IMG/VR virus record: IMGVR_UViG_3300034082_001676
Location: 1 to 64,000 of that record
DNA: 64,000 nt
Source of the DNA: an uncultured virus (IMG/VR IMGVR_UViG_3300034082_001676)
Taxonomy: Duplodnaviria; Heunggongvirae; Uroviricota; Caudoviricetes
Strand: one strand, 5' to 3'
Each line of letters begins with the position of its first letter. The stretch's first letter is position 1. Below are positions 21,431 to 59,623 of this stretch, in pieces. Made by a program: the position numbers and the translations under genes. Below the pieces are notes generated by a model. That model saw nothing but the letters and a program-made list of their open reading frames with translations. It did not search any database and was not told the DNA's origin.

Positions 21431-21454
21431 AAAGAAAACCCGCCGAAGCGGGTT
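21431..21454 (-). terminator. Intrinsic terminator of tmRNA
   Basis: AACCCGC-TTCG-GCGGGTT-TTCTTT. Confidence 0.85.
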
Positions 21455-21801
21455 CCGAGTTTCTGTTACGAGGTATGTCTTACCCTAAGCTGAGTTTAGG
21501 CAGCTAATGCGAACTTTGAGTCGTTTGCGGTTACTTTTTTGTGTCTTCGACCGGGAGACCCCAATCCTAACGGCTTCTACATTGCCGAGCTGTCCACTCT
21601 GTTACTCTTTGCCCAATCGATCCTGTGTCAGGCCCATCAGAAAAACACTTATGTCTTGTTAAACCTTTACCTGGTGCCCAACTAAATCTATTAAAACAAC
21701 TTGGGCACAATGCGGTGTACTTCATAAATATCCTTTTGGTGGACCTGGCGGGCACTGCCCCCGCGTCTTGAACTTATTTCTCATCGCTTCATACAGCAAT
21801 A
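21435..21801 (-). ncRNA. ssrA: Circularly permuted (two-piece) tmRNA
   Basis: Acceptor piece ending CAGGTCCACCA (CCA end at 21737) precedes coding piece starting GGGCCTG (21635); G3-U alanine pair; tag frame 21528-21496 encodes ANDSKFALAA*; TAAATA at 21807-21812; 5' end approximate. Confidence 0.92.
21567..21725 (-). CDS. Possible 52 aa CxxC...HxC peptide starting in the tmRNA intervening segment
   Basis: AAAGGA SD then ATG; MKYTALCPSCFNRFSWAPGKGLTRHKCFS...; 3' half overlaps the tmRNA coding piece. Confidence 0.35.
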   Translation of the reverse strand: MKYTALCPSCFNRFSWAPGKGLTRHKCFSDGPDTGSIGQRVTEWTARQCRSR

Positions 21802-21813
21802 ACTTATATTTAA

Positions 21814-22122
21814 CTACATTTTAACAGTTAAGTCAATGTCTTCTTGTTGCTTTTGGACTTCTTTCATAGGACGAATAGGTTCTAACCAGGAATCTGGAAT
21901 GTAGGCCTTTGGAGTATCTCCGTACATATTACTCAATCCAAATTCTGTGGCTATCCACCAAAAGTGATCTGTAATAGCAGCCTTGCAGGCAATTCCCTTA
22001 AACTGAAATTCCTCACCTTGCGTAAAATGTCCCACATACTCATCCACCAACACAGTTTTGCCTATGTTGGTAGGCCGTATGCTCATGATAATTTTGGCAA
22101 GATCGCCTTGTTCACATTTCAT
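21814..22122 (-). CDS. Hypothetical phage protein
   Basis: 102 aa ORF; GDLAKII...IPDSWLEPIRP. Confidence 0.75.
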   Translation of the reverse strand: MKCEQGDLAKIIMSIRPTNIGKTVLVDEYVGHFTQGEEFQFKGIACKAAITDHFWWIATEFGLSNMYGDTPKAYIPDSWLEPIRPMKEVQKQQEDIDLTVKM

Positions 22123-38356: not shown

Positions 38357-39061
38357 CTATGTGCGTAACTTGGCCAGTCTTAAAAATTTAAATAGACTAA
38401 ACCACATCCAACCTATGTCAAACTCAAACCAACGACGACTCAGCTTAGGATTAGCAGGATCTAAGTGATGATTGTTGTGTAGTTCTTCACCGCCAATTAG
38501 TATGCCCCAAGGCACTATATTACGGCTGTGGTCTTTGGTTTCGCCATTGCGATAGCCCCACCAGTGTCCGATGCCGTTGATAAATCCAGCGGCCCAGAAC
38601 GGAATCCATAACATTTGTACACCCCACACCATAAACCCCCAAAGCCCAAATAACAATAAGTCTATGACTAGCATTAAGAGAATGCCTAGTTTGTGATGTG
38701 GGGTATACAACTTGCGTTCAATCCAGTCTTTGGGAGTGCCCATTCCGTATTTCATGATCATGTCAGCATCTTTGCCAGCACGATTATAAAACTTGACTCC
38801 ACCAAATACCAATGGCCAAATACCAAATACGTGTGGACTATGTGGATCACCTTCTACATCAGTATTTTGATGATGTTTACGGTGAATTGCTACCCATTGC
38901 TTAGTAGTCATGCCTGTGGTCATCCACAACCAAAAACGCATAAAATGGCTCAGGATTGGGTGAAATTCAATTCCTCTATGTGCTTGGTTTCTGTGTAGAT
39001 ATAGTGTGACACAGACTATTGTGATGTGCGTCATTACTAGGGTTGCGATTATTATAGTCAT
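38357..39061 (-). CDS. Fatty acid (acyl-CoA delta-9-like) desaturase
   Basis: His boxes HRNQAH, HRKHH, HNNHH; GDPHSP; WFEFDIGW. Confidence 0.93.
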   Translation of the reverse strand: MTIIIATLVMTHITIVCVTLYLHRNQAHRGIEFHPILSHFMRFWLWMTTGMTTKQWVAIHRKHHQNTDVEGDPHSPHVFGIWPLVFGGVKFYNRAGKDADMIMKYGMGTPKDWIERKLYTPHHKLGILLMLVIDLLLFGLWGFMVWGVQMLWIPFWAAGFINGIGHWWGYRNGETKDHSRNIVPWGILIGGEELHNNHHLDPANPKLSRRWFEFDIGWMWFSLFKFLRLAKLRT

Positions 39062-39076
39062 CTTTTACTTAGCCCG

Positions 39077-39105
39077 TTGACATAAGGGTTAAATTATGCT
39101 ATAAT
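39077..39105 (+). promoter_or_regulatory. Perfect-consensus sigma70 promoter, leaderless-type
   Basis: TTGACA-N17-TATAAT, 5 nt before ATG 39111. Confidence 0.85.
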
Positions 39106-39110
39106 ATAGT

Positions 39111-39710
39111 ATGAAAAATAAACTTATACTCACAGACGCAGATGGAGTTTTGCTAGATTGGGAATGGGCATTCTCAGTTTGGATGCAAGAACGCGGTTAC
39201 ACTCTAACAGCAGACAACAAGAAAAGCTATTATCTGCATGATCACTACAATGAGCTAGAGGAACGGGATTCAAAGAAAGTTGTTAAAACTTTCAACGAGT
39301 CAGCAGCCATTGGCTTTCTTCCTGCTCTACGTGATTCAGCTCACTATGTTAAAAGACTGCACGAAGAACACGGTTATGAATTCCGGGTGATCACAAGTCT
39401 AAGTCTAGACAAGAACGCAGGCAAACTGCGTGAAATGAATCTTCGTAAACTGTTTGGCAATGCCATTGAAAGTGTTATTTGCCTGGACACAGGTGCAGAC
39501 AAAGATTCAGCATTGGCTCCTTACAAGGCGAGTGGCATGTGGTGGATTGAAGACAAGCCTGCCAATGCCGATGTTGGCCACAGTCTAGGACTGCGCTCTA
39601 TCCTTATTGAACACGGGCACAATATGCATCATGAATGTTCATACCCTGTGGTCAAGAACTGGCGCGAACTCTACGAACTAGTTTTAACTCCAGTATCTGG
39701 TGCTGTCTAA
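39111..39710 (+). CDS. HAD-superfamily phosphatase (T4 gp30.2-like)
   Basis: LTDADGVLLDW, VITS, WIEDK. Confidence 0.85.
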   Translation: MKNKLILTDADGVLLDWEWAFSVWMQERGYTLTADNKKSYYLHDHYNELEERDSKKVVKTFNESAAIGFLPALRDSAHYVKRLHEEHGYEFRVITSLSLDKNAGKLREMNLRKLFGNAIESVICLDTGADKDSALAPYKASGMWWIEDKPANADVGHSLGLRSILIEHGHNMHHECSYPVVKNWRELYELVLTPVSGAV

Positions 39711-40400
39711 ACTGTCCCAATAGGCTTTGTTGTTGCGATTGACAAAGTTTTTGACTAGATACTTGGCCATGCCCATATAGCCCATCTTCTTGAATCTACG
39801 ACTGTCCTGACCAAAGTGATGTCGTATGATTCTAAACTTCTTAGGGCTGTACTTACGGCTCAAGAAGAAGTCTTCTGATGTTGCAAACTGCTCCGGAAAG
39901 CCGCCGTACTGTTCAAAGCGATCCCTGCGTGTTAGCATAAAAGCACCAACAGCAAAAGGACTAACATATTTTAATACATGATTGATTAGGTTAAATGCTG
40001 TAAACCCAATCTTTGCTCGTAGGTCTCGATCATAGCATTTGATATTCAATCCTATGAGGTCTAGGTTCTTACGCTCTATCATGTCAACAGCATCTTGTAT
40101 TACATTATCTTTAAAGAATCGCACATCAGCATCAATAAACAAGATATAGGGAGTAGTGACCAGTTGTGCTCCATTGTTCTTGGCCAGCGAAACAGGCCCA
40201 CCTTCAATGATTTCTACATTTAACTTGCCCTTTGCGGCTTGAATAACTTCACGAGTATTGTCTGTAGAACAATCAGCAATGATGATTCTAGTATCACCAA
40301 TGTTTTGGCTGCGTAGAGAGTCTAGCAAATGGTGTATGTAGTTCTCCTCATTCTTGCAGGGAACCACAATGGTAATTTTATCGCTTATTGTCGTTTGCAT
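39684..40400 (-). CDS. Glycosyltransferase family 2
   Basis: IVVPCKNEE, STDNT, LFIDAD, GGF...SEDF. Confidence 0.92.
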   Translation of the reverse strand: MQTTISDKITIVVPCKNEENYIHHLLDSLRSQNIGDTRIIIADCSTDNTREVIQAAKGKLNVEIIEGGPVSLAKNNGAQLVTTPYILFIDADVRFFKDNVIQDAVDMIERKNLDLIGLNIKCYDRDLRAKIGFTAFNLINHVLKYVSPFAVGAFMLTRRDRFEQYGGFPEQFATSEDFFLSRKYSPKKFRIIRHHFGQDSRRFKKMGYMGMAKYLVKNFVNRNNKAYWDSLDSTRYWS

Positions 40401-40555
40401 TGGCCTACCACCTTAAAATTTTTAAACTTCAGCTGCCACTTGAGGCTGCTTAGGACTTGCTCGCAGGTCTTTTGATCTTGGAACTGGAGTTCTACTCTGC
40501 CTGGTTGATCCTGGGGATCGTTTATATGTATCGCTGTCAGTATCAATAGCCACAT
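40385..40555 (-). CDS. Small 56 aa protein overlapping the 3' end of the metallophosphoesterase gene
   Basis: AAGGAG SD then MWLLILTAIHINDPQDQPGRVELQFQDQKTCEQVLSSLKWQLKFKNFKVVGQCKRQ. Confidence 0.55.
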   Translation of the reverse strand: MWLLILTAIHINDPQDQPGRVELQFQDQKTCEQVLSSLKWQLKFKNFKVVGQCKRQ

Positions 40556-41306
40556 CATCTCGCTCCTTGGTCCAAGTTATAATTTCCCAACGGCCGTTGT
40601 GGTGTTCTACAAGTGCAGTACACGATTCAACCCAGTCACCGTCATTCATATAAGTTACACCGTTGATCTCTTTGATCTCTGCATGGTGTATGTGTCCGCA
40701 TATGATTCCATCAAAGCCACGTTTCTTGCAATAGCCTGCTAGATTCTCTTCAAACTTGAATATAAAGTCTACTGCTTTTTTAACCTTGTGCTTAAGAAAT
40801 TTGCTAAGGCTAAAGTACCCAAAACCCATACGACGACGAATCCAATTAAATTTATTGTTGAGGCTAAGAATAAAGTCATAGGCCTTGTCTCCCAAGAACG
40901 CAATCCACGGTGCCAGTCTAGTAATGCCATCAAATAGGTCACCATGTGTAACTAGATAGTGTTTGCCGTCTGCACCTATATGTTCTATTTGATTGTGTAT
41001 TTCTACTAGTCCAAATGAAAAGCCATACGGTATCATGGGTCTTAGAAACTCATCGTGATTGCCTGCTATGAATACCACACGAGTTCCACGCTTGGCGTGA
41101 CCTAGTATTCTGCGTACCACATTAGTGTGGCTCTGCTTCCACCGCCATTTGTTCTGTTGTATCTTCCAGGCGTCGATTATATCTCCCACAAGGTATAGTG
41201 TGTCACAACTATTATGCTTGAGGAAATTATTTAGTTGTCCAGCCTTGCAGTCTTTGGTACCTAAGTGGACATCGCTTACAAAAATACTACGATAAGTCTT
41301 TTGCAT
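40422..41306 (-). CDS. UDP-2,3-diacylglucosamine hydrolase-like metallophosphoesterase (LpxH family)
   Basis: SDVHLG, GDIID, GNHD, HGD, GHIH, NDGDWVES. Confidence 0.88.
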   Translation of the reverse strand: MQKTYRSIFVSDVHLGTKDCKAGQLNNFLKHNSCDTLYLVGDIIDAWKIQQNKWRWKQSHTNVVRRILGHAKRGTRVVFIAGNHDEFLRPMIPYGFSFGLVEIHNQIEHIGADGKHYLVTHGDLFDGITRLAPWIAFLGDKAYDFILSLNNKFNWIRRRMGFGYFSLSKFLKHKVKKAVDFIFKFEENLAGYCKKRGFDGIICGHIHHAEIKEINGVTYMNDGDWVESCTALVEHHNGRWEIITWTKERDDVAIDTDSDTYKRSPGSTRQSRTPVPRSKDLRASPKQPQVAAEV

Positions 41307-41339
41307 CAAATATTTAACGAATATTCGATTACACTAAGA

Positions 41340-41984
41340 TTACAAAGTCATCAATTCGTCAACAAAGTCTAATAACAATGTGTGGTGGTGACCATTATGG
41401 TACAGACCCTGCATCCATGAATAGCCTTCATACCAATGAGGTTGACTTTCGGGATGACAGCCCATGATGCCTACATTGCCCTGTATAACAGCCATTGGAT
41501 CACCGTTGGGATACAGACTCCATATCTTGGCTGTGTCAATGCCTGCACCTACTAGAGCACAGCCATCATAGAAGAACATAGATTCTTCTTCACCCTGCCA
41601 CAACACTCGTTGATTCTTGGCGTGTGGTCTGCGTGTGTCAGCACCTGGACGGGTAATGTATTGTTCTGCACGAATGTCTTTGAGTAGATCAAGATAGTAA
41701 TGTTCGGCCCAATAGGCTCCCATACAGATGCCTAGGTACCGGCCACCACCACGAACAAATCTTTTGACTGCATCTCCATTCTCGCTGAATAGATAATCAA
41801 AACTACTGGCATCCCCTATGCCTCCGGGAATACAGATACAGTCTACATCGTCAAAGAAATCCCGCTCAACTTCGTGGCGGGTGAATATTTTAAAACTGTA
41901 ATGTGAGCCCAGGGCTTGCATAATCCCATTGCCGCTTTGCACACTGCACTTGGGTTGATGTAAGAATAACGCAATCTTTTTCAT
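41340..41984 (-). CDS. Class I glutamine-amidotransferase-like protein (BPL_N family)
   Basis: IPGG, GGRYLGICMGAY, HPE. Confidence 0.8.
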   Translation of the reverse strand: MKKIALFLHQPKCSVQSGNGIMQALGSHYSFKIFTRHEVERDFFDDVDCICIPGGIGDASSFDYLFSENGDAVKRFVRGGGRYLGICMGAYWAEHYYLDLLKDIRAEQYITRPGADTRRPHAKNQRVLWQGEEESMFFYDGCALVGAGIDTAKIWSLYPNGDPMAVIQGNVGIMGCHPESQPHWYEGYSWMQGLYHNGHHHTLLLDFVDELMTL

Positions 41985-42001
41985 CACAGCTCTTTATGTT
42001 A

Positions 42002-42100
42002 GTGCTCACTTAGAACGCCATTCCCGGGCACGACTCCGATAACGTTCTGCCCAGCAGCCGGGCACACCAAGTAACGCAAGCGTTCCTAAGGTAGGTGTTC
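42002..42100 (-). ncRNA. Unidentified compact structured RNA with probable pseudoknot
   Basis: ACACC/GGTGT, AACG-CTTG-CGTT, GCCCG-GCTGC-TGGGC, AGAACGTTAT/ATGGCGTTCT; TGCT can pair with 3' AGCA; G-U pairs favour the minus strand. Confidence 0.65.
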
Positions 42101-42110
42101 TATTCTAAAA

Positions 42111-42551
42111 TTAATTGCACCAGCTTTGTTTAGCGTCACCGTAGTATTCACGAGCGTGACCGTTGCTAATAAGTCCCTGTCTAATGCTCTGTCCGTTTAC
42201 CAAGATATCTCCCAATATACGGCCACCAAACTTATCCCATCCATAGATAATAACTTGGTGCTTTGGGTGGGATTGTAGGGCTTGAGTTGTAAATTTACTC
42301 GCCAGTTGCGCTCGCTGGTCTTCTTGTGGACATTGAGCTCTGTGTCCTTTTTCCGGGGTGTCGACTCCGTAGATTCTAACAGCAAGTTCAGGTTTGAGCG
42401 GTAGTGGTAGAAAGGGAGCGGCGATTACAATAGTATCGCCATCACTCACTCTAATAACTTGTGCGTCATAAGTCGCTGACTTGGCAGGCATCTTGCCCTG
42501 TGCAAATGCTAGTACCGGGACTAACAATAATACGGCTAAAAATCTTTTCAT
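42111..42551 (-). CDS. Secreted thermonuclease (SNase-like)
   Basis: Signal peptide; VSDGDT, RIYGVDTPE, DKFGGRILG, GHAREY. Confidence 0.92.
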   Translation of the reverse strand: MKRFLAVLLLVPVLAFAQGKMPAKSATYDAQVIRVSDGDTIVIAAPFLPLPLKPELAVRIYGVDTPEKGHRAQCPQEDQRAQLASKFTTQALQSHPKHQVIIYGWDKFGGRILGDILVNGQSIRQGLISNGHAREYYGDAKQSWCN

Positions 42552-42575
42552 ATAAACTCCAATAAGTGCTAGTAT

Positions 42576-43211
42576 TTATTCGTATGTAACAGTGTCTGAG
42601 TCACCTAGACGCCATTTAGGGTTCTGTTCAACCACCCACTTCTTAGTGGCCACTTTGAAGTCTGGGTGCAGCATTTCTTTGGGATTGCTGGCGGCATCAA
42701 AGAATCTGCAGCGATTGTTGGGCTGTGCGGCATACTGTCCGTTGTCTAGTTCGATAAAGTTAAAGCTCTTGTGATCTTCAGGCCATTCTGAATATGTGGT
42801 GTCTATGATGTTCATGTCAGGTGCGGCATTGTCCACTGTGAACAAGTATTTGCCCTTGTGTAGCTGACGATCCTTGGCATAGAACTCACAGCTGAGATTG
42901 CGTAGAAATGCTTTCTGGATCACAGCTATGTCATAGCTGAAACAATCCCAAATCTGTAAGGTGTCCAATGATAGGAACTTGTCCGACTCTAAGTCAGTGT
43001 TTCTACTCACATAGGCATGTAGGGGCAGCTTGTCATAGAGAGCACCGTATCTGGGCAAATAGCTTTCTATGCGGAATGCTTGACTGCGTAGGCTCTTGAT
43101 ACTAACCCAGATGCAGGGTTCATACTCTCCGTATCCTGATTTAAAATCGTAGAGAAATTCTCGTCTTACAAAACAATGTACAGGTGGCAGATTAGCCACT
43201 AAGAAACTCAT
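42576..43211 (-). CDS. Conserved hypothetical phage protein
   Basis: MSFLVANLPP...YGALYDKLPL...LQIWDCFSY...LDNGQYAAQPNNR; start moved to ATG overlapping upstream stop. Confidence 0.8.
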   Translation of the reverse strand: MSFLVANLPPVHCFVRREFLYDFKSGYGEYEPCIWVSIKSLRSQAFRIESYLPRYGALYDKLPLHAYVSRNTDLESDKFLSLDTLQIWDCFSYDIAVIQKAFLRNLSCEFYAKDRQLHKGKYLFTVDNAAPDMNIIDTTYSEWPEDHKSFNFIELDNGQYAAQPNNRCRFFDAASNPKEMLHPDFKVATKKWVVEQNPKWRLGDSDTVTYE

Positions 43212-43369
43212 TAGTTGTAGCCTCGTTGAATACCTTTGTCTACACAATCACTACATTCACAGTCCGGGCAATCGCAGCCGTCTGTCATACAGCTGAATCC
43301 GCAGTGTGCGGTACACCAGCAGGTGCATTTGGGTTTTAGTCGTTGATATGTTTCTGTTTCTTCAGTCAT
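43211..43369 (-). CDS. Cys-rich 52 aa peptide (metallothionein-like)
   Basis: Hand-translated MTEETETYQRLKPKCTCWCTAHCGFSCMTDGCDCPDCECSDCVDKGIQRGYN; 10 Cys; exactly fills the gap between neighbours. Confidence 0.7.
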   Translation of the reverse strand: MTEETETYQRLKPKCTCWCTAHCGFSCMTDGCDCPDCECSDCVDKGIQRGYN

Positions 43370-44617: not shown

Positions 44618-45829
44618 ATGATAAACAAAGCTCCCTTTAATGCTCTACTAAAAAATCTTAAAGACACTGGCAAATATCGTGTGTTTAACGATATCATCCG
44701 CGAAAAGGGCAAGTTCCCTTCAGCTATGTGGTACGGTCCCTATAATATCAAAACTATCACAAACTGGTGTAGCAATGATTATCTAGGTATGGGCCAGCAT
44801 AAAGTTGTACTAGATGCCATGCATACTGCACTAGATCACACAGGAGCAGGCAGCGGAGGCACTCGCAATATTGCAGGCACCAGTCACTATCACGTGGCTC
44901 TAGAACACGAACTAGCCACCTTGCACAACAAAGCTAAGGCCTTGCTGTTTAGTTCAGCCTATGTGGCCAACGAGTGGACATTAATTGCTTTAAGCAAGAT
45001 CATACCCAACATACATTTTGTATCAGACAGTGAGAACCACAACAGCCTAGTCATAGGTATGGTACACAGTCGTGCTCCAAAGACTGTGTTTCGTCACAAC
45101 GATCTCAATCACCTAGAAGATATATTAACCAGCATACAGCTCACAGGCAATACACCCTGTATAGTATTTGAATCAGTTTACTCAATGGATGGCGATGTTG
45201 GACACATCAAAGAAATCTGCGATCTAGCAGATCGTTATGGTGCTATAACATATATCGATGAAGTTCATGCGGTAGGACTCTATGGTCCCCACGGTGGTGG
45301 GAAAGTTGAAGAGCTTGGGCTACAATCCCGTATTGACATAGTCAATGGTACATTAGGGAAAGCCTATGGAGTCCAAGGTGGTTATATAGCTGCCGATGTA
45401 GAAGTCATTGACGCCATCCGTTCAGTAGCTGCGGGCTTTATCTTTACCACAAGTATGAGTCCTGTAAGTTGTGCTGGTGCCCTGGCTGCGGTCAAGTACC
45501 TAAAGGATCACAATGAATTGCGTGACAAACATCAAGAACGGGCTCGTAAGCTCAAGCATAGATTATCTGTGGCCGGTATGCCTGCAATGGAATGTACTAC
45601 CACTCACATTGTACCTATCCTAGTAGGAGAAGCTGTTCGCTGTAAAGCCATCAGTGATGAACTGCTCAACGAACACAACATCTACATACAGCCTATCAAC
45701 AATCCCACAGTTGCCGTAGGAACGGAGCGGTTGCGTATTGCTCCCACTCCGTTTCACGATGATGGTATGATTGAAGATCTGATTACGGCGCTGACTGCTT
45801 CATTTGCGTGTCACCCGGCGCAAGTCTAA
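44618..45829 (+). CDS. hemA: 5-aminolevulinate synthase (PLP-dependent, Shemin pathway)
   Basis: [61 protein letters not shown]. Confidence 0.93.
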
Positions 45830-46166
45830 AACGATCTTCTGCATAGTCTCCAGTACCAACTTCAAATATCACACTGTTGGCCACTAGAGATTCTACTTGA
45901 TGTGGTCCTAGCTGCCCAAAGTCAGCAGTCTGTCCTTCTTCTAGCACAGCTTCTTTTACTTCTCCGGTGGCAACATCGATAAATTTAACTTTGAACTTGC
46001 CTGCATTCACAAACCAACTCTTGGCTTTTTCTTTGTGAAACACCAAACTGGTCTTGGCCCCTGCACGTTCAAATACCAATAGTTTGCCGCAGTATTTGTC
46101 GTTGTTGGCAAACACCAATTCAAATCCCCAACCCTTGTCTATTTTACCCAATGTCTGTAAGTTCAT
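45783..46166 (-). CDS. Cupin-fold protein
   Basis: KGWGFE...YCGKLL...SLVFHKEK...H...EV. Confidence 0.75.
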
Positions 46167-46750
46167 TATCTCTCCGTTATAATTTTGTCGATGAGTCCGT
46201 AGGCCAATGCTTCATCAGCACTCATAAATTTGTCTCGTTCCATATCAGCAGTCATCTGTGCAAAAGTTTTGCCCTGGCTGTTGTGTTTGACATAGATTTC
46301 AGTCAATGTCTTTTTCATTTTAATAATCTCTTCAACTTGAATCTGCATATCTGTGGCCTGTCCGCGAGCACCGCCACTGGGTTGATGAATCATGTGTCGA
46401 GCATTGGGCAACATAAAACGTTTGCCTTTGGCTCCGGCAGTGGCCAACAATGATCCCATTGAACAGGCCTGTCCCATAACATAGGTTGATACATCGGGTT
46501 TGATAAATTGCATGGTGTCATAGATGCTCATACCCGATGTGACAACTCCACCGGGACTGTTGATAAACAGGCTGATGTCTTTGTCTGGATTTTCACTTTC
46601 TAGAAATAGTAATTGGGCTACAATAACATTGGCCATTTGATCCTCTACAGGACCATTCAGCATGATAATTCTTTCTTTGAGCAGTCGGCTGTAAATGTCG
46701 TAGGCTCGTTCGCCTTTACTAGATGATTCAATTACCATTGGTACTAACAT
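46166..46750 (-). CDS. clpP: ATP-dependent Clp protease proteolytic subunit
   Basis: [32 protein letters not shown]. Confidence 0.98.
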
Positions 46751-56595: not shown

Positions 56596-56711
56596 CAGAA
56601 GGAGAACGAGCAGGACGCTGGGCTATGCTGTATATCTATACGGTGTTGTTTGCTTTATGGTTTAATATTGTCGCCATTGCGGTCTGGCATATCAAGGAGT
56701 GGTTTTTATGA
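56592..56711 (+). CDS. 39 aa single-TM peptide
   Basis: Hand-translated MTEGERAGRWAMLYIYTVLFALWFNIVAIAVWHIKEWFL; ATGA overlaps at both ends. Confidence 0.6.
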   Translation: MTEGERAGRWAMLYIYTVLFALWFNIVAIAVWHIKEWFL

Positions 56712-59364: not shown

Positions 59365-59370
59365 TCTAGA

Positions 59371-59613
59371 TCAACTCCAGTCTGGAAGTGGGCCGCCATA
59401 TTTCTTGCCCTTGATTCTTTTGCCTTTTACTGTGGTGCGCTCATTGCCAATCTTGTGTGATTTATTGCCGTGTCGACCACGATAGCCTTGGCTCTTGCAG
59501 CTGGCCAGTTGACTGGCACCTAGTGCAGCATTGGGTTTGCCGCTCGTGCAAAGAGCTCGGCTCGCGGGCTCTTCGTCTAATTCTTTGTTTTGGATAACTT
59601 CAAATATTCGCAT
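59371..59613 (-). CDS. Small basic protein, 80 aa
   Basis: MRIFEV N-terminus, TAAATA 4 nt upstream; Lys/Arg/Gly-rich tail. Confidence 0.7.
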   Translation of the reverse strand: MRIFEVIQNKELDEEPASRALCTSGKPNAALGASQLASCKSQGYRGRHGNKSHKIGNERTTVKGKRIKGKKYGGPLPDWS

Positions 59614-59623
59614 CAAGTATTTA

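Follow-up and report, generated by a model that had tools for sequence, protein, structure and literature searches.

We identified, on the minus strand of a phage genome fragment, a structured RNA that represents a real, conserved and apparently undescribed family with a strong computational case for 23S rRNA targeting. Because its exposed loops are complementary to the part of 23S rRNA at which the ribosomal subunits join, the phage probably acts on host ribosomes with this RNA. We consider it likely that the RNA pairs with 23S rRNA. We also think it reasonably likely that it would be a multi-guide phage RNA that strand-invades H67–H71 with interchangeable loop guides carried on a fixed pseudoknotted scaffold, and that would control the fate of the host 50S subunit (its inactivation, its recycling for nucleotides or phosphorus, or the steering of its maturation). 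A more specific version, to which we give a little less than an even chance, is that the locus is a trans-acting phage small RNA gene, present at about one copy per genome, whose product would base-pair with the 3′ half of domain IV (H67–H71) of host 23S rRNA and disable subunits.

The window, by which we mean the whole 64,000-nt stretch of DNA that was analysed, covers 64 kb at the start of a virus record of 72.6 kb that is estimated to be 20% complete. Near-complete relatives are 320–525 kb in length, and the record is a fragment of a ~350-kb T4-like phage. Phage-type ribonucleotide reductase, DNA ligase and RNA ligase are encoded in the window. We also found a permuted (two-piece) tmRNA gene at 21451–21840 on the minus strand (Rfam RF04321, 102 bits, and RF01849), which was missed by ARAGORN, a PLP aminotransferase gene at 44618–45829 on the plus strand, which we take to resemble 5-aminolevulinate synthase, and a ClpP gene at 46166–46750 on the minus strand. 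Taken together, the aminotransferase, ClpP and the two-piece tmRNA hint at a proteobacterial host. A 52-aa ORF at 43211–43369 (minus strand), which overlaps the start of the next ORF, contains 10 cysteines in CxC and CxxC motifs and is metallothionein-like by eye.

The RNA occupies a 123-nt gap between genes for a staphylococcal nuclease-like (SNase) protein and a BPL_N-like protein and is co-directional with both (Table 1). A covariance model (CM) search of the 72.6-kb record recovered this one copy only, with a score of 71.9 bits. Genes for a metallophosphoesterase, a GT2 glycosyltransferase and a fatty-acid desaturase lie directly downstream of the locus (38357–41309, minus strand). The initial annotation had described a GC-rich island, and the composition bears this out: the element has a GC content of 57.6% as compared to 40.5% for the whole contig, and its gap has the highest GC (0.50) among the 27 window gaps of at least 90 nt, with flanking genes of 42–53% GC. 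Raised GC was also observed in two more intergenic gaps, 59365–59623 (0.48) and 56596–56698 (0.46). Other elements of that description were correct as well. The four helices, the CUUG loop and a 10-bp stem containing two G-U pairs are all present on the minus strand, the RNA ends 17 nt from the downstream ATG, and the element is not an intrinsic terminator, as no terminator-like site was found at it.

Table 1. Coordinates of the RNA, its structural parts and its neighbours in the window.
Feature	Position	Strand	Basis or remark
Structured non-coding RNA	42002..42100 (core 42098-42004)	(-)	CM hit, 71.9 bits
Upstream gene, staphylococcal-nuclease-like (SNase)	42111..42551	(-)	PF00565; stop 10 nt before RNA
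Downstream gene, BPL_N / GATase-like	41340..41987	(-)	PF09825
TAAATA late-promoter-like word before SNase gene	42573..42578	(-)	Word scan
5′ domain: P1 (42098-42094 with 42068-42064) around guide loop L1 and optional hairpin P2	42064..42098	(-)	Fold of 5′ part; compensatory changes in close homologues
Guide segment L1	42084..42094	(-)	Perfectly complementary to E. coli 23S 1923-1933 (H69 3′ strand, running into H70/H71)
P2 hairpin, CUUG loop (42080-42077)	42073..42084	(-)	3′ strand 42075-42071 complementary to 23S 1910-1914 (H69 loop side)
P3 hairpin, 4 bp, 7-nt loop L3 (42059-42053)	42049..42063	(-)	98.4% paired, double-sided change in 4/4 pairs
P4: 10-bp stem (42048-42039/42021-42012), 3-nt purine bulge (42024-42022), 3-bp stem, apical loop L4 (42035-42028)	42012..42048	(-)	84% paired
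3′ tail, 6-bp H-type pseudoknot with L3, G42007 bulged; likely RNA 3′ end	42004..42010	(-)	Covariation

Homologues were collected in two ways. An nhmmer search over 140 loci chosen by the two flanking proteins gave 47 matches, many of them from identical or near-identical loci, and pattern scans, three on viral contigs and one on metagenomes, brought the collection to at least 307 distinct elements. Many homologues were retrieved by patterns that fix guide motifs, and related sequences are not independent; thus guide-motif frequencies are partly circular. One locus (L220) was a false pattern hit and was left out of the counts. A blastn search against 50,697 annotated phage records gave only three short chance matches. 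A pattern scan of GTDB gave 90 matches, two of which were confirmed by the CM, both next to phage-like genes; a further copy lay on a second contig of the same MAG. Given the phage-like neighbours, we read these copies as phage contigs inside MAGs and not as a cellular family. The copies lie within two bacterial MAGs (L491 and L837 in G073, L445 in G074), with L491 beside a phage-type DNA polymerase gene and L445 beside genes of PHROG families, and are probably phage contigs that were binned with bacteria.

Folding of the single sequence was no better than chance (z = −0.82; 40 of 200 shuffles were as stable), and the structural support instead comes from covariation among homologues. Compensatory changes, which the initial annotation had named as a check on the fold, were searched for and found. 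With 82 sequences in an unfitted MAFFT alignment, pairing was seen in 76.7% of the cells as compared to 58.8% after shuffling. P3 was paired in 99% and the outer P4 stem in 84% of the cells, with lower values for P1 and P2 that are at least partly due to poor alignment. RNAalifold recovered P3 alone from the MAFFT alignment because the lengths of P1, P2 and P4 vary. The P2 tetraloop is not conserved among homologues, and minimal members of the family (L829 and L837) contain no P2, such that L1 is a 9-nt hairpin loop. Two loci (L287 and L328) have the 5′ guide and the P4 loop without P3 or the pseudoknot. A different GC-rich structured stretch, identical in two records (L838 in G055 and L840 in G056), combines a P3-like hairpin with an L4-like loop and is followed by a terminator-like hairpin.

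The 6-bp pseudoknot between L3 and the tail, which caps the 3′ end, is real. Its six loop-tail pairs (42058–42053 with 42010–42004) were 94.2% paired in an alignment to a model without the pseudoknot, with double-sided change in four of the six, a result reached by none of 500 shuffles. We also carried out an alignment-free test on 22 loop types, excluding eight unparsed loci, in which pairing of a loop to its own tail scored 12.5 as compared to 9.8 ± 0.5 for permuted tails, a score reached in none of 5000 permutations; in only eight of the 22 types, however, did the loop pair best with its own tail. A database pattern with no constraint on the P3 loop or the 3′ tail gave 107 listed matches, 44 of which (a few are chance hits) had a different loop, and the tail was usually changed too. 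A loop-tail pseudoknot had been proposed before, and its existence stands, but the register given then (UGCU with AGCA) was off by 3 nt and was 80.8% paired as compared to 79.0% after shuffling.

The Rfam results agree with the earlier suggestion of a novel structured RNA. Rfam 15 applied to the whole window at the gathering score returned tmRNA only, a search of the element at E ≤ 10 gave snoRNA noise outside the element only, and searches of 20 and 14 homologue loci at E ≤ 1 gave no credible match on the element, such that no family matched the element or any of the 34 homologue loci. ARAGORN detected no tRNA-like or tmRNA structure in the element, and a terminal CCA was present in one of the 311 elements listed. 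A box C/D or H/ACA guide was rejected on the basis of no family match and of L4 classes that shift among sites up to 40 nt apart. By-eye likenesses to twister (on the reverse strand), pistol, SRP domain IV, HDV-like RNAs, CsrA sites and the tRNA elbow, judged by the features that we assume for these RNAs, gave no model match, and rRNA complementarity explains the bases better.

The main clue, absent from the initial annotation, is the complementarity of the conserved loops to 23S rRNA H67–H71. Their likeness to the complement of 23S rRNA near H69 was presumed as a starting idea and was then tested on fetched rRNA sequences. The references were the 23S rRNAs of E. coli, Mucilaginibacter and Bradyrhizobium, which may not be the host's own, and target nucleotides 1917–1937 are identical in the three. 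For 303 of the 307 distinct elements listed, the longest exact antisense match to E. coli 23S rRNA (8–17 nt, mode 12) fell within 1820–1985. The 5′ loop L1 matches 1917–1933, with 1920–1933 as its predicted target; the match in the window is 11 nt (1923–1933) and is the element's longest antisense match to the three 23S rRNAs. A pattern without the 5′ domain retrieved 113 listed elements, all of which kept the L1 core. The bases opposite 1922–1930 were Watson-Crick in 95–108 of 108 5′ domains, although the regular expression fixed part of these, and L1 variants placed a G opposite U1923 in eight cases and opposite U1926 in two, giving G-U pairs with the target. The L1 core is also near-palindromic. 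A modest excess was observed for P2, as 83 of 86 P2-bearing domains could pair at least 5 nt with 1906–1917 versus ~60% of random windows.

The apical loop of P4 supplied further guides. Among the 131 loops listed from a pattern without L4, 75 matched 1927–1937, 39 matched 1964–1969, 11 matched 1968–1978 and four matched 1938–1942, the remaining two being artefacts. L4 thus differs by subfamily, with complementarity to 1929–1937 or 1968–1978, or to 1964–1969 in the subfamily of the window, and in some members the L1 and L4 targets overlap at 1929–1933. The 9-nt L4 classes were reached by 7–11 of 3000 shuffles and, among 199 other rRNA windows, by none. By themselves, the 6-nt and 5-nt classes were not significant, and the window's own L4 (6 nt, 1964–1969) was equalled by 907 of 3000 shuffles. 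One subfamily adds a segment complementary to 1827–1835, which in the E. coli sequence is the partner strand of 1972–1976 in a helix that we take to be H67. Eight elements have this segment together with a loop complementary to 1967–1979, and by their sequence could open both strands of the helix. The guides track segments that are neighbours in the folded rRNA, which suggests that the target is RNA rather than DNA, and the landing of different loop sequences on one 60-nt region is hard to obtain by chance. While the stems and the pseudoknot drift freely, the unpaired loops stay complementary to 23S rRNA.

When the cost of opening both folds was included, 11 of 12 elements, among them the one in the window, had the H69 window as their best site out of 291 rRNA windows. 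By duplex energy alone, H69 was the best site for 30 of 41 domains, and the 5′ domain of the window preferred another 23S window (−29.8 versus −26.7). For the window by itself the case is thinner, with an L4 match of 6 nt, this energetic preference for another site, and 11-nt matches to 23S domain IV in eight of 1450 tiles of the same contig. Since these tiles match equally well, the case rests on the family and on several independent guides rather than on this one window. Other antisense matches of at least 10 nt to the domain within the contig look like chance. Two further complementarities, of the commonest P3 loop (42060–42051 in the window) to 16S rRNA 518–527 and of the commonest type of L3 and tail (42010–42004) to 23S rRNA 1070–1076 and 1099–1105, were rejected as targets because they are lost in pseudoknot variants.

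The conserved bases also bear on whether the element could be a self-cleaving ribozyme of a new kind, acting in the processing of polycistronic transcripts of the phage and complementary to rRNA only incidentally. Size, the pseudoknot, variable stems, short conserved segments and an intergenic location in a phage all fit small ribozymes, and a transcript-processing role is suggested for bacterial hammerhead and twister ribozymes (PMC6765202). However, no ribozyme family in Rfam matched, a hammerhead core word occurred in seven of the 311 elements listed with the full core in one, and the junction and pseudoknot bases are not invariant. Instead, the conserved bases are in hairpin loops, and unrelated sequences, all with a match in one rRNA region, can take the place of L4. 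We consider self-cleavage, which the initial annotation had entertained, to be highly improbable.

Comparison of 98 proteins on both sides of the family members revealed varied neighbours. Upstream genes encode SOD, ferritin, dCMP deaminase, SHMT, GIY-YIG or Fe-S scaffold proteins, whereas those downstream encode SAH hydrolase, radical SAM, terminase, isocitrate lyase, desaturase or BPL_N proteins; neither the SNase nor the BPL_N-like gene is a fixed partner of the RNA. The context counts drop loci with short flanks, and the ORF calls are crude, such that several neighbours scored as 'opposite-strand' are artefacts. Within 70 nt downstream of the RNA, 132 of the 248 homologues listed have a TAAATA or sigma-70-like word, versus five of 248 for the antisense direction and seven of 241 further upstream. 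A terminator-like site was found downstream of the RNA in six of the 248 listed. An ORF of 87–89 aa follows the RNA in several loci (L142, L144, L149, L155, L158, L172, L174, L180, L200, L201, L203, L204 and L210), mostly behind a sigma-70-like promoter, and its product in L142 is a weak match to a phage transcriptional regulator family.

These data argue against a riboswitch or leader for the downstream BPL_N/GATase-like gene, which the initial annotation had considered. The RNA does lie 14–17 nt before a start codon with a weak SD sequence, and a BPL_N gene directly follows the RNA in many members that were retrieved through BPL_N. However, checking whether the downstream gene varies among homologues, as had been advised, revealed unrelated genes that often have their own promoter word, and BPL_N homologues below ~75% identity mostly occur without the RNA. 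The RNA is thus not consistently in the 5′ UTR of functionally related genes, and we find the leader reading scarcely credible.

The copy-number pattern is consistent with a gene of its own. A model search found the RNA in 32 of 46 records, and among near-complete records it was present in seven of eight, mostly in one copy, the exception being a 160-kb phage. In 22 records selected by ClpP alone, which amount to ~5.9 genome equivalents by hand summation, there were seven strong copies in six records. One complete genome contains a second copy (L502, G001:C1:76937-77018) in which P3, the pseudoknot and P4 are kept and the 5′ guide has decayed. RNase P RNA was found in none of five near-complete relatives. 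In three loci (L174, L191 and L193) the upstream gene is divergent, the RNA is preceded by a promoter word and the next gene by a promoter-like site of its own. TAAATA ends 11–14 nt before L1 in 13 of the 275 elements listed; assuming the spacing of T4 late promoters, transcription from this word would start at P1. Context and copy number together fit a stand-alone RNA gene, as opposed to a leader or a repeat. The suggestion of a small RNA in the initial annotation was supported; of its inferences, the new structured RNA and the small RNA stood, the cis-acting leader did not and the ribozyme was disfavoured.

In most loci the RNA closely follows a gene. The upstream gene was co-directional in 117 of the 124 loci listed and ended within 15 nt of the RNA in 100 of these 117, and 16 of the 117 stop at a UAG inside L1. 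The upstream genes of three loci (L156, L200 and L206) encode GIY-YIG endonucleases and end at a UAG within the 5′ loop of the RNA; such endonucleases could have helped to carry the RNA from one locus to another. Readthrough or bypass of the UAG stop codon in L1 was rejected, as only 16 of the 117 upstream genes end there and the upstream frames are mixed (45/44/28). The close spacing raises the alternative of a cis-acting mRNA element 3′ of the stop codon that captures ribosomal subunits by rRNA pairing after termination and passes them to the next gene. Calicivirus termination-reinitiation elements are an analogue of such a mechanism. In addition to the arrangement of the upstream genes, the weak SD sequence and the lack of a promoter word for the BPL_N-like gene in the window, as well as the complementarity of L3 to 16S rRNA 518–527, are consistent with capture. 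However, short distances to a stop codon are expected anyway in a compact genome, the 16S match is lost in pseudoknot variants, and about one copy per genome beside unrelated genes, together with the three stand-alone layouts, does not suit a cis-acting element. We consider capture distinctly unlikely.

In the source genome the RNA-carrying transcript has a probable promoter in the TAAATA word before the SNase gene, which we take to be a T4-type late promoter. Of the 80 genes in the window, 20 have this word close to their start. The region is represented in contigs from four freshwater or lake RNA runs, including one contig that spans the element and both flanking genes; these contigs show presence in RNA libraries, not ends, strand or level.

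The strand evidence favours the minus strand overall, yet it is mixed. Among P4 mismatches there were 86 G-U versus 26 A-C, mostly with purine-purine mismatches otherwise, which indicates the minus strand, whereas the same test on P1 (7 versus 18) indicates the other strand. The minimum energy of P4 also favours the other strand, by 169 versus 110 (n = 282). An active opposite strand or DNA, mimicking rRNA or rDNA of H69–H71 as a decoy for a nuclease or other factor, would agree with the P1 mismatches, with the slightly better folding of P4 on the plus strand and with the rRNA-sense copies of the segments that this strand carries. Yet these segments do not follow the order of the rRNA, the element is oriented like its neighbours, and promoter words for the plus strand occur in only five of the 248 homologues listed. 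Considering also the P4 G-U pairs, the purine-rich internal loops and the G-U pair in the pseudoknot of the minus strand, we give a decoy very little probability.

Our model is that the RNA would be made late in infection, being transcribed from a TAAATA-type promoter of its own or forming the end of the transcript of the upstream gene, and that the pseudoknot would shield its 3′ end. L1 would nucleate on H69 of free or immature 50S subunits, in which H67–H71 is flexible, and L4 would take a second grip nearby. Opening of bridge B2a and the H69–H71 region would leave the subunit unable to join or mature, and the opened subunit would probably be exposed to turnover. Three literature findings led us to favour inactivation or turnover over other readings. 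H67–H71 is highly unstable in 45S precursors, domain IV matures last, and H69 forms bridge B2a (PMC3737534); a PNA against H69 inhibits growth of E. coli (reviewed in PMC7038079); and decay of E. coli 23S rRNA begins with a single RNase E cut after 1942 (PMC4931109). Even so, an inhibitory outcome is not obvious, as a lytic phage needs host ribosomes, and we propose 50S inactivation or turnover tentatively, as an outcome slightly less probable than not.

The same pairing with H67–H71 might instead help phage translation, with the RNA acting as a chaperone, a placeholder or a shield against nucleases in late 50S maturation, or as a guide for rRNA modification. All of the 23S complementarity applies equally to such a role, the phage carries another RNA that supports translation (the permuted tmRNA), and domain IV is the last to mature (PMC3737534). 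However, the L4 subfamilies hit different sites and so do not provide the constant geometry that a modification guide needs, there is no box C/D or H/ACA family match and no fixed protein neighbour, and the pairing itself would disrupt H69. We regard a helper role as unlikely, though worth serious consideration.

A literature search that covered few subscription journals revealed no description of a natural RNA pairing with the functional core of rRNA in bacteria, and a search with sequence words returned unrelated primers and siRNAs only. If the predicted pairing with H67–H71 is true, it would represent a new kind of phage control over the host's ribosomes and, for bacteria, a new class of regulation by RNA acting on rRNA. 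The RNA would then be the bacterial-phage equivalent of snoRNAs that pair with rRNA and a naturally occurring antisense inhibitor of the ribosome. Because the target is identical in three distant bacteria, the claim is directly testable with E. coli ribosomes. The natural variants of the family would map the invadable parts of H67–H71, which is relevant to antisense antibacterial design, to late assembly of the 50S subunit and to how ribosomes are turned over when infection takes place in nutrient-poor water.

Among known systems, the RNA has the features of trans-acting antisense sRNAs: its unpaired conserved segments are complementary to the target, weakly so for L4 of the window, and it is independent of its neighbours, with its own promoter word or a stand-alone layout in a minority of loci. 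OxyS, CopA and RNA I are small folded antisense RNAs with recognition sequences in loops and a protected 3′ end. The phage RNA shares these three properties, and a two-loop contact with the target is plausible. In contrast, its predicted target is the functional core of 23S rRNA rather than an mRNA or primer RNA, and its 3′ end carries a pseudoknot, not a terminator. Archaeal and eukaryotic snoRNAs, including the pre-rRNA chaperones U3, U8 and snR30, pair with conserved rRNA. Like these, the phage RNA is predicted to pair at two or more sites, possibly during assembly, but it belongs to a bacterial-phage setting and is without C/D or H/ACA boxes, constant target geometry or known partner proteins. 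Twister, pistol, hatchet, twister-sister, hammerhead and HDV-like/theta ribozymes near phage genes are alike in size, pseudoknot, variable stems and intergenic location; the phage RNA differs in having no model match, about one copy per genome and conserved bases that are explained by rRNA complementarity. The viral structured RNAs of Fremin et al. 2023 (PMC10690425) come from the same IMG/VR source and have the same size range, and the first part of that text assigns no such function to them; our motif may be among its 8495 DNA-virus candidates. The synthetic PNA on H69 (Kulik et al. 2017, as cited in PMC7038079) has the same target helix, which was shown to be invadable with inhibition of growth in E. 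coli. Whereas the PNA is an artificial oligomer, the phage RNA is natural and structured and would present two or three guide segments.
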